Shown here piece by piece: positions 41,737 through 42,293 of a stretch of DNA of 64,000 nt. Numbering within the stretch: position 1 is the first letter of the stretch; the number at the start of each line of letters is the position of its first letter. The notes under the pieces are model-generated. The model made no database searches, was not told the DNA's origin, and saw only the letters and a list, made by a program, of their open reading frames with translations. The translations under genes and the position numbers were made by a program. Source of the DNA: Escherichia coli (GTDB taxonomy: Bacteria > Pseudomonadota > Gammaproteobacteria > Enterobacterales > Enterobacteriaceae); NCBI RefSeq assembly GCF_009931435.1, contig NZ_CP043414.1. The stretch is one strand, 5' to 3'.

Positions 41737-41770
41737 AAAAAAACCGCAATTTGTGAAACACATTGCGGTT
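41737..41770 (-). terminator. Rho-independent terminator of the tRNA-fMet operon (minus strand)
   Basis: On the minus strand, hairpin aaaccgcaatgtgtttcacaaattgcggttt followed by T7. Confidence 0.6.
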
Positions 41771-41788
41771 TATCAGCATCATAAGTGT

Positions 41789-41865
41789 TGGTTGCGGGGG
41801 CCGGATTTGAACCGACGACCTTCGGGTTATGAGCCCGACGAGCTACCAGGCTGCTCCACCCCGCG
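41789..41865 (-). tRNA. metZ: Initiator tRNA-fMet (anticodon CAU)
   Basis: 77 nt; minus-strand sequence cgcggggtggagcagcctggtagctcgtcgggctcataacccgaaggtcgtcggttcaaatccggcccccgcaacca; C1-A72 mismatch and three G-C pairs in the anticodon stem; which copy is metZ, metW or metV is arbitrary. Confidence 0.9.
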
Positions 41866-41898
41866 TCACCGTACTGCTTTACTTCATCAAATTTTGAT

Positions 41899-41975
41899 TG
41901 GTTGCGGGGGCCGGATTTGAACCGACGACCTTCGGGTTATGAGCCCGACGAGCTACCAGGCTGCTCCACCCCGCG
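41899..41975 (-). tRNA. metW: Initiator tRNA-fMet (anticodon CAU)
   Basis: Identical 77-nt copy, 110-bp period. Confidence 0.9.
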
Positions 41976-42008
41976 TCACCGTACTGCTTTACTTCATCAA
42001 ATTTTAAT

Positions 42009-42085
42009 TGGTTGCGGGGGCCGGATTTGAACCGACGACCTTCGGGTTATGAGCCCGACGAGCTACCAGGCTGCTCCACCCCGCG
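42009..42085 (-). tRNA. metV: Initiator tRNA-fMet (anticodon CAU)
   Basis: Identical 77-nt copy, 110-bp period. Confidence 0.9.
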
Positions 42086-42293
42086 TCCGTGGATGCGCAC
42101 TATACTCCGCTCGCGTTTTCATGCAACCTTTTTTTTACCCAGATCACGGATTTGGTATGATTTTGAGCAAAAACAAATCACTAAAGCCTGTTTTTTGTGC
42201 AAAATTTGCGTCAGGGAGAGGCTGCTCATTTCATTAAACGCAGCGGTTTGTTATCTTCATTGCGCCTTATTTTTTAAACTGAAGAAGAGAACA

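Follow-up and report, generated by a model that had tools for sequence, protein, structure and literature searches.

Three initiator tRNA genes beside a probably old, integrase-free phosphotransferase operon in Escherichia coli

Organization of the amiC-mltA region

The window analyzed here is a 64,000-nucleotide stretch of Escherichia coli DNA (NCBI RefSeq assembly GCF_009931435.1, contig NZ_CP043414.1), and all positions refer to it unless another genome is named. It contains exactly three tRNA genes, all of which are identified by ARAGORN as tRNA-Met(CAT) on the minus strand. The three genes form the ordinary housekeeping operon metZ-metW-metV, which is a conserved chromosomal landmark and lies outside the neighboring islet of five genes. 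The order of genes in the region is recD, argA, amiC, islet, metV-metW-metZ, mltA, tcdA, and csdE. The islet is very probably an old operon of a phosphotransferase system (PTS), free of an integrase, that has been inherited and exchanged by homologous recombination. The metZWV operon, the use of metV as an insertion hot spot, and the PTS genes are all already known from the literature.

The operon metZ-metW-metV supplies most of the initiator tRNA, tRNA-fMet1, of the cell. Each of the three 77-nt copies in the window reaches 61.4 bits with the tRNA model of Rfam, and the copies are base-identical to one another and to metZ, metW, and metV of strain K-12. The marks of an initiator can be read directly from the sequence: the C1xA72 mismatch, the G29G30G31:C39C40C41 pairs, and G46, which corresponds to tRNA-fMet1. 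They agree with the initiator identity elements and with the description of the K-12 operon (PMC3017606). Tandem Repeats Finder (TRF) reports a single array at 41788-42087 with a period of 110, 2.7 copies, and 99% matches. The first-pass annotation of this DNA had described three identical tandem tRNA-fMet genes of 77 nt on the minus strand, repeated every 110 bp, with their 3' ends facing the islet. ARAGORN, Rfam, and TRF bear out the description of the array, and the orientation of the genes that of their 3' ends. At a permissive threshold, the Rfam search returned the tRNAs and one sub-threshold match to a small nucleolar RNA, which was dismissed as chance.

The window operon resembles that of K-12 in its 110-bp period, 33-nt spacers, promoter block, and place between mltA and amiC (PMC3017606). 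The major differences are on the metV side, where the window has another terminator hairpin and a 5.5-kb islet instead of a 73-bp spacer. Furthermore, the two 33-nt spacers of K-12 have four mismatches in 33 positions (PMC4583644), whereas those of the window differ from each other by 1 nt. In the CFT073 assembly GCF_014262945.1, the middle copy, metW (locus L004, 7023-7099), carries the substitution C17A in the D-loop, which may be genuine or may stem from a sequencing error.

Transcription of the operon would start at a conserved sigma-70 promoter adjoining mltA and proceed along the minus strand, and the transcript would be processed into three identical tRNAs. The putative promoter is composed of the -35 hexamer TTGCAT (42126-42121), a 16-nt spacer, the -10 hexamer TATAGT (42104-42099), a GC-rich discriminator, and an A-tract upstream. 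The block GCGGAGTATAGTGCGCATCCACGGA is unchanged in the window, K-12, Salmonella, and Atlantibacter hermannii, and this invariance suggests that it is the metZWV promoter. Mutations at or beside the -10 hexamer reduce the levels of tRNA-fMet in K-12 (PMC3017606); the mutated positions probably map onto the corresponding bases of the window. The scan for consensus promoters and terminators listed neither the metZWV promoter, in which only three of the six positions of the -35 hexamer match the consensus, nor the terminator of the operon. Since both were missed, the promoter was assigned by conservation and the terminator by folding. Transcription would stop at a hairpin that faces the islet (41742-41771; -16 kcal/mol, z-score -2.8) and begins seventeen bases beyond the CCA end of metV, with a U-tract on the minus strand that extends to 41737. 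The terminator had been placed about 20 bp from the last islet gene, which is about right, as the hairpin and U-tract end 26 nt from its stop codon (41710).

Genes and leader of the islet

The islet is a self-contained catabolic operon under antiterminator control and is not mobile in its present form. Profile searches assign metabolic or regulatory functions to all five of its genes (Table 1). The GC content is 0.32-0.46 in the islet, compared with 0.51-0.57 in the flanks. The first gene encodes a transcription antiterminator, in which Pfam recognizes the CAT_RBD (1.4e-14) and PRD (3e-26) domains. Just 5' of this gene, the motif TTGTAACTGTTAAATCAGGCAAGGCAA, which is similar to a ribonucleic antiterminator (RAT), overlaps a strong leader terminator (36399-36470). 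The leader folds with -28.8 kcal/mol and a z-score of -5.4, and none of 200 shuffled sequences folded as well. Escherichia, Atlantibacter, and Citrobacter all have the leader in conserved form, and a compensatory change has altered the stem from GGCA/TGCC to GACA/TGTC. We take the motif to be like the RAT consensus of BglG/LicT regulators, and it may function as a RAT.

The islet appears to share with the PRD-antiterminator PTS operons bgl, licT-bglS, and sacPA a regulator with CAT-RBD and PRD domains and a RAT-like motif positioned over a leader terminator. In addition, the gene for the cognate EIICB transporter is immediately downstream of the regulator, as in these operons. In contrast to them, the islet does not contain a gene for EIIA, and it encodes a PatB/MalY lyase, an SIS isomerase, and a 2-hydroxyacid dehydrogenase instead of a phospho-glycosidase. 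The window has an intact dehydrogenase gene; that of the closest genome is annotated as frameshifted, and in strain CT282 the gene is split by an element of the IS21 family.

Table 1 Features of the metZWV operon, the islet, and the flanking core genes
Feature	Position	Strand	Basis of assignment
amiC, core gene, left flank	34971-36224	+	Annotation of 99%-identical genome
Islet leader: RAT-like motif (~36399-36427) overlapping predicted strong terminator (~36414-36470)	36225-36481	+	Folding, conservation
BglG/LicT-family PRD transcription antiterminator	36482-37306	+	Pfam CAT_RBD and PRD; NCBIfam LicT 1.5e-67, under equivalog cut-off
PTS EIICB transporter, MalX-like (glucose/maltose family)	37338-38918	+	TIGR02004 5.7e-161, under cut-off; Pfam PTS_EIIC and PTS_EIIB
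PatB/MalY-family C-S lyase, dependent on pyridoxal phosphate (PLP)	38918-40093	+	TIGR04350 366 bits, over 340-bit cut-off
SIS-domain-only sugar-phosphate isomerase, KpsF/GutQ-like without C-terminal part	40096-40692	+	Pfam SIS; first ~200 positions of KdsD/GutQ models only
D-isomer-specific 2-hydroxyacid dehydrogenase, last islet gene	40763-41710	+	Pfam 2-Hacid_dh and 2-Hacid_dh_C
Predicted Rho-independent terminator of tRNA operon, islet-type hairpin, stem CCGCAA/TTGCGG	41737-41771	-	Folding
15-nt segment at metV 3' end (TTGGTTGCGGGGGCC)	41788-41802	.	Duplicated core of the type VI secretion system island in CFT073 and w264; unoccupied in window
metV, tRNA-fMet1, last operon gene	41789-41865	-	ARAGORN, Rfam, K-12 comparison
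Internal transcribed spacer metW-metV, 33 nt	41866-41898	-	K-12 comparison
metW, tRNA-fMet1	41899-41975	-	ARAGORN, Rfam, K-12 comparison
Internal transcribed spacer metZ-metW, 33 nt	41976-42008	-	K-12 comparison
metZ, tRNA-fMet1, first operon gene	42009-42085	-	ARAGORN, Rfam, K-12 comparison
Putative metZWV promoter	42099-42126	-	Conservation
mltA, core gene, right flank	42295-43391	+	Annotation

Boundaries of the islet

Comparison with K-12, CE10, and Salmonella delimits the islet to 36225-41788, that is, 5.5 kb. On the left, the similarity between K-12 and the window ends at or just after the stop codon of amiC, after GGGGAT(G/A)AT, and on the right it resumes at the base beside the CCA end of the tRNA. 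The spacer between amiC and metV of K-12 is 73 bp long and contains two terminators; in the window it is replaced by the islet. The K-12-type metV terminator, ACACCCGTTAGGGTGT, is common to Salmonella. It was not found in the window, indicating that the resident sequence downstream of metV was not displaced to the far end of the islet. The islet-type hairpin stem is common to A. hermannii and all islet-bearing Escherichia.

No other site in the window matches the 15-nt 3' end of the tRNA with three or fewer mismatches, and a local alignment of the terminator and tRNA 3' end with the amiC-proximal leader was no better than alignments of shuffled sequences. Neither search revealed a decayed remnant of the tRNA 3' end beside amiC in the window. 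No integrase or transposase is annotated over the equivalent 64 kb of a collinear genome that is 99% identical to the window. Neither an integrase nor a repeat of the tRNA 3' end was found at the islet in about 12 genomes from three genera; the homologous islets of E. whittamii, A. hermannii, and Citrobacter likewise contain no integrase or repeat. The first-pass annotation had reported neither a tRNA 3'-end copy at the amiC-proximal border nor an integrase, and both statements hold: the searches uncovered no overlooked flanking repeat or integrase remnant that could be attributed to the islet in the window. The islet thus resembles tRNA-targeted integrative islands in its position next to a tRNA 3' end, low GC content, and strain-variable presence, but it differs from them in that it contains no integrase or direct repeat, and the resident spacer was replaced rather than displaced.

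Occupancy of the site and composition of PAI-CFT073-metV

Among 5426 complete E. coli genomes, 3734 have the short spacer of the K-12 type, and the islet is present in 1683, about a third. It directly abuts the tRNA array, as in the window, in approximately 595 of the 1683 islet-bearing genomes, whereas approximately 1088 contain an insertion at the 15-nt core; CFT073 is typical of the latter.

The counterpart of the islet in CFT073 covers 92% of the query with 93.9% identity, and it has the same gene order and the same junction at the amiC stop codon. The islet can be recognized by this comparison as the already catalogued PTS operon c3405-c3410 of CFT073, the deletion of which reportedly reduces the fitness of CFT073 in the urinary tract, although this is not part of the evidence here. 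These genes were singled out as a PTS gene set within the island PAI-CFT073-metV (c3385-c3410, in the nomenclature of Lloyd et al. 2007 as cited in PMC2831201). The five window genes correspond to the c3405-c3410 segment of this island; in contrast, its 27-kb part encoding a type VI secretion system (T6SS) is missing from the window. In CFT073, genes from tssB to VasL are positioned between the PTS genes and metV, and the order is islet with terminator, the last 15 nt of the tRNA, the 27-kb T6SS island, and the intact metV-metW-metZ. The window is without the T6SS cluster, and the dehydrogenase gene passes directly to metV.

The T6SS island of CFT073 is flanked by an exact direct repeat of 41 nt (54 of 66 positions over an extended stretch), which takes in the terminator's 3' arm and trailer together with 15 nt at the tRNA 3' end (loci L002, 11764-11804, and L004, 7195-7235). 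An integrase is not present in the annotation of the T6SS island at metV in CFT073. The T6SS island is also present in the islet-free strain w264, beside the K-12-type terminator and the same 15-nt core. The att-type scar at this tRNA can therefore be attributed to the T6SS island, and the PTS islet lies outside the repeat. PAI-CFT073-metV is evidently a composite of two independent pieces. The metV 3' end is a true hot spot for insertions: metV is among the most used tDNA targets (PMC7545054), and a T6SS downstream of metV has been described in E. coli W and CFT073 (PMC3032704).

The separation of PAI-CFT073-metV into two pieces, with an att-type repeat at the T6SS piece only, gives a cleaner picture of the locus. 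It is of use in the annotation of the metV hot spot and where the occupancy of metV serves as a strain marker.

Distribution and divergence of the islet

The same five genes are located between amiC and the tRNA-fMet array in Escherichia whittamii, the divergent 'E. coli' E69, and A. hermannii, according to a scan that included one genome per species. The islet proteins are 68-86% identical to those of A. hermannii. The five genes of Citrobacter sp., C. freundii, and C. amalonaticus are bordered by yafV on one side and by the 3' end of tRNA-Asp (aspV) on the other, beside dnaQ-rnhA, and no integrase or repeat was found at these copies. The aspV/yafV/dnaQ-rnhA locus is also a site of a T6SS island in E. 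coli. A version with four genes, in which the dehydrogenase is missing, occurs in an Enterobacter and also in Enterococcus termitis, where EIICB is 71% identical in amino-acid sequence; this fits an origin of the islet from low-GC DNA.

The number of synonymous substitutions per synonymous site (dS) between Escherichia and A. hermannii is saturated in the islet and flanks alike. The GC content of third codon positions (GC3) of the islet is shifted toward that of each host, with values of 0.33-0.46 in E. coli and 0.46-0.57 in A. hermannii, and is thus partly ameliorated. The saturation of dS and the drift of GC3 toward the composition of the host indicate that the islet has resided in both lineages for a long time. 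A nonsynonymous rate (dN) of 0.82 calculated for the dehydrogenase of A. hermannii was discarded as an artefact of the end-extension of the BLAST match.

Within E. coli, the alleles of the islet are block mosaics with 83-100% identity, compared with 97-100% in argA and amiC, and dS reaches 0.56 in the islet versus 0.03-0.11 in the flanks. For example, the block of CFT073 at approximately 37303-37602 is 98.7% identical to E. whittamii, whereas its flanks are 92-93% identical. The mosaic blocks and divergent dS values indicate repeated homologous exchange of islet segments between lineages of Escherichia. The PTS islet can be regarded as an ancient recombining segment with alleles far more divergent than the surrounding core genome.

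The core genes of the window are 93.5-96% identical in nucleotide sequence to those of K-12 and CFT073 and about 92-93% identical to those of E. whittamii. The identity to standard E. coli of only 93.5-96% indicates that the window belongs to a deep-branching lineage of Escherichia. Between 37 and 94 of the 5426 genomes are at least 99% identical to the window at this locus.

Origin of the islet

The arrangement in the window is, with high probability, that of a housekeeping metZWV operon next to an old PTS operon spread by homologous recombination. The lineage would have acquired the islet DNA in the distant past from a source low in GC, and the islet would afterwards have been inherited vertically and shuffled among Escherichia by recombination through the flanks, amiC on one side and the tRNA array with mltA on the other. 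Spread by homologous recombination via conserved flanks would also account for the lack of an integrase and an att repeat. The suggestion of the first-pass annotation that the insertion is old, decayed, or acquired by recombination rather than recently integrated is supported by the relatives at the same site, saturated dS, GC3 values, and allele mosaics. Its recombination part agrees with the spread of the islet, in which mosaic alleles stand against uniform flanks.

Several observations weigh against this interpretation. The terminator adjacent to metV differs between islet-bearing and islet-free haplotypes, and the two haplotypes nevertheless share short motifs on either side of the hairpin (ATACAAAAAAAC, TTC.AATAA). 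Because of these common motifs, the right edge of the foreign DNA can only be placed within 41711-41788. The left junction in Escherichia is exactly at the amiC stop codon, without a scar that would show how the islet first arrived. Moreover, the same operon adjoins the 3' end of a different tRNA, aspV, in Citrobacter, an adjacency more suggestive of a mechanism directed at tRNAs than of homologous exchange alone. Our best guess is that the original insertion was an event targeted to a tRNA 3' end, and that the distal scar was later deleted in Escherichia.

It is possible, if rather unlikely, that the islet is a decayed integrative island. According to this explanation, an integrase inserted the element at the 3' end of metV and pushed the resident terminator toward amiC; the integrase and the distal att site were subsequently lost, with the deletion reaching the amiC stop codon in Escherichia. 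The operon is positioned directly 3' of tRNA ends in the same orientation at two loci, metV in Escherichia and Atlantibacter and aspV in the three species of Citrobacter, and the same 15-nt end of metV is demonstrably used by the T6SS island. The non-ancestral terminator stem and trailer of the islet haplotype also match the tRNA-proximal arm of the T6SS island. However, neither an integrase nor a repeat was found in any of the approximately 12 genomes of three genera. In addition, the similarity between the islets of Citrobacter and Escherichia stops at the stop codon of the dehydrogenase gene, and no common att arm is visible. In A. hermannii, the amiC-side spacer can be aligned collinearly with the tail of the K-12/Salmonella-type terminator, the trailer, and the end of the tRNA; the score of 37 exceeds those of all 898 background windows and is suggestive of a displaced resident sequence. 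Nevertheless, the part matching the tRNA 3' end is not significant alone, as it is equaled by 203 of 632 background windows, and the composite score originates mainly from an A-run motif. An att remnant in A. hermannii is thus not claimed.

The islet-only state of the window could also be secondary, derived from a CFT073-like state by precise excision of the T6SS island through recombination between the direct repeats, but this is improbable. Recombination across the 41-nt repeat of CFT073 (54/66 extended) would recreate the window arrangement exactly, and islet-bearing genomes with an insertion at the core (~1088) stand against ~595 without one. However, the trailer of the window, TCATAAGTG, is unlike both copies of CFT073, TTCTAATAAA. 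Precise excision leaves no trace in a single sequence, and it leaves aside how the islet originated. It is far less probable still that the ancestor of the Escherichia/Salmonella group already had the islet at this site and that the K-12 spacer is a product of deletion. The occurrence of the islet at the same site in A. hermannii and its divergence, similar to that of the flanks, would be expected in this case. Yet the two terminators of the K-12 spacer are absent from the islet haplotype, so that a deletion cannot yield the spacer, and the K-12-type metV terminator is common to Salmonella; the scenario was rejected on these two grounds. It is also at odds with the difference in GC content between the islet and its flanks, the close homologues in Enterococcus, and the unrelated genes that follow amiC in Kluyvera and Klebsiella.

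A more speculative reading can also be considered. The five-gene operon could be what is left of the cargo of an element formerly directed at tRNA 3' ends, metV in Escherichia and Atlantibacter and aspV in Citrobacter, with the invariant tRNA-fMet array now serving as a cross-genus homology anchor; we consider this doubtful. The array is identical in Escherichia, Salmonella, and Atlantibacter. If this were the case, the islet and terminator would be movable without an integrase, and the presence of both islands at this tRNA without integrases would be accounted for.

Copy number of the tRNA array

Tandem identical tRNA genes permit unequal recombination, which results in arrays of one, two, or three copies. 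In an evenly spaced sample of 60 from 5425 matching genomes, the array has three copies in 55 genomes, two copies in two, and one copy in two; the counts are those of this sample, and some of the low ones could be due to assembly collapse. In the remaining genome, of sequence type ST648, the array is rearranged and the query matched only in part. Direct inspection identified two copies in PCN033 and one copy in strain 3908, and two Salmonella genomes contain one and two copies, respectively. The tandem repeats had been predicted to be a substrate for copy-number change, and the natural arrays of three, two, or one copy agree with this.

Deletion of the operon hampers growth under certain conditions (PMC11480407), reduced expression of the operon loosens initiator selection (PMC3017606), and the metZWV spacers of K-12 co-purify with and bind the small RNAs RybB and MicF (PMC4583644). 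Because of these reported effects on growth, initiator selection, and small RNAs, the copy number of the array plausibly matters for the physiology of the cell.

In E. coli BL21(RP), the neighbor of mltA is not the tRNA array; instead, the gene adjoins an ISAs1 transposase and the yafV-ivy-fadE neighborhood, which is the aspV region. Such a junction points to a rearrangement that broke at the metZWV locus.

Other observations in the window

The spacer between mltA and tcdA (43392-43467) is 76 nt long in the window and several strains, compared with 238 nt in K-12 and CE10, and is thus a small indel polymorphism beyond the array. The segment 9318-11172 contains an open reading frame of 556 aa with DUF4139/DUF4140 (9356-11026, minus strand) between lplT and tas, which is the only extra reading frame of the window relative to the collinear, 99%-identical goat isolate R32_14_1F. 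The fucose locus (~54195-60400) differs from that of K-12, in which fucP is situated between fucI and fucA: according to the annotation of a near-identical genome, this place is taken by genes of a sugar ABC transporter, an FGGY kinase, and a LacI regulator.

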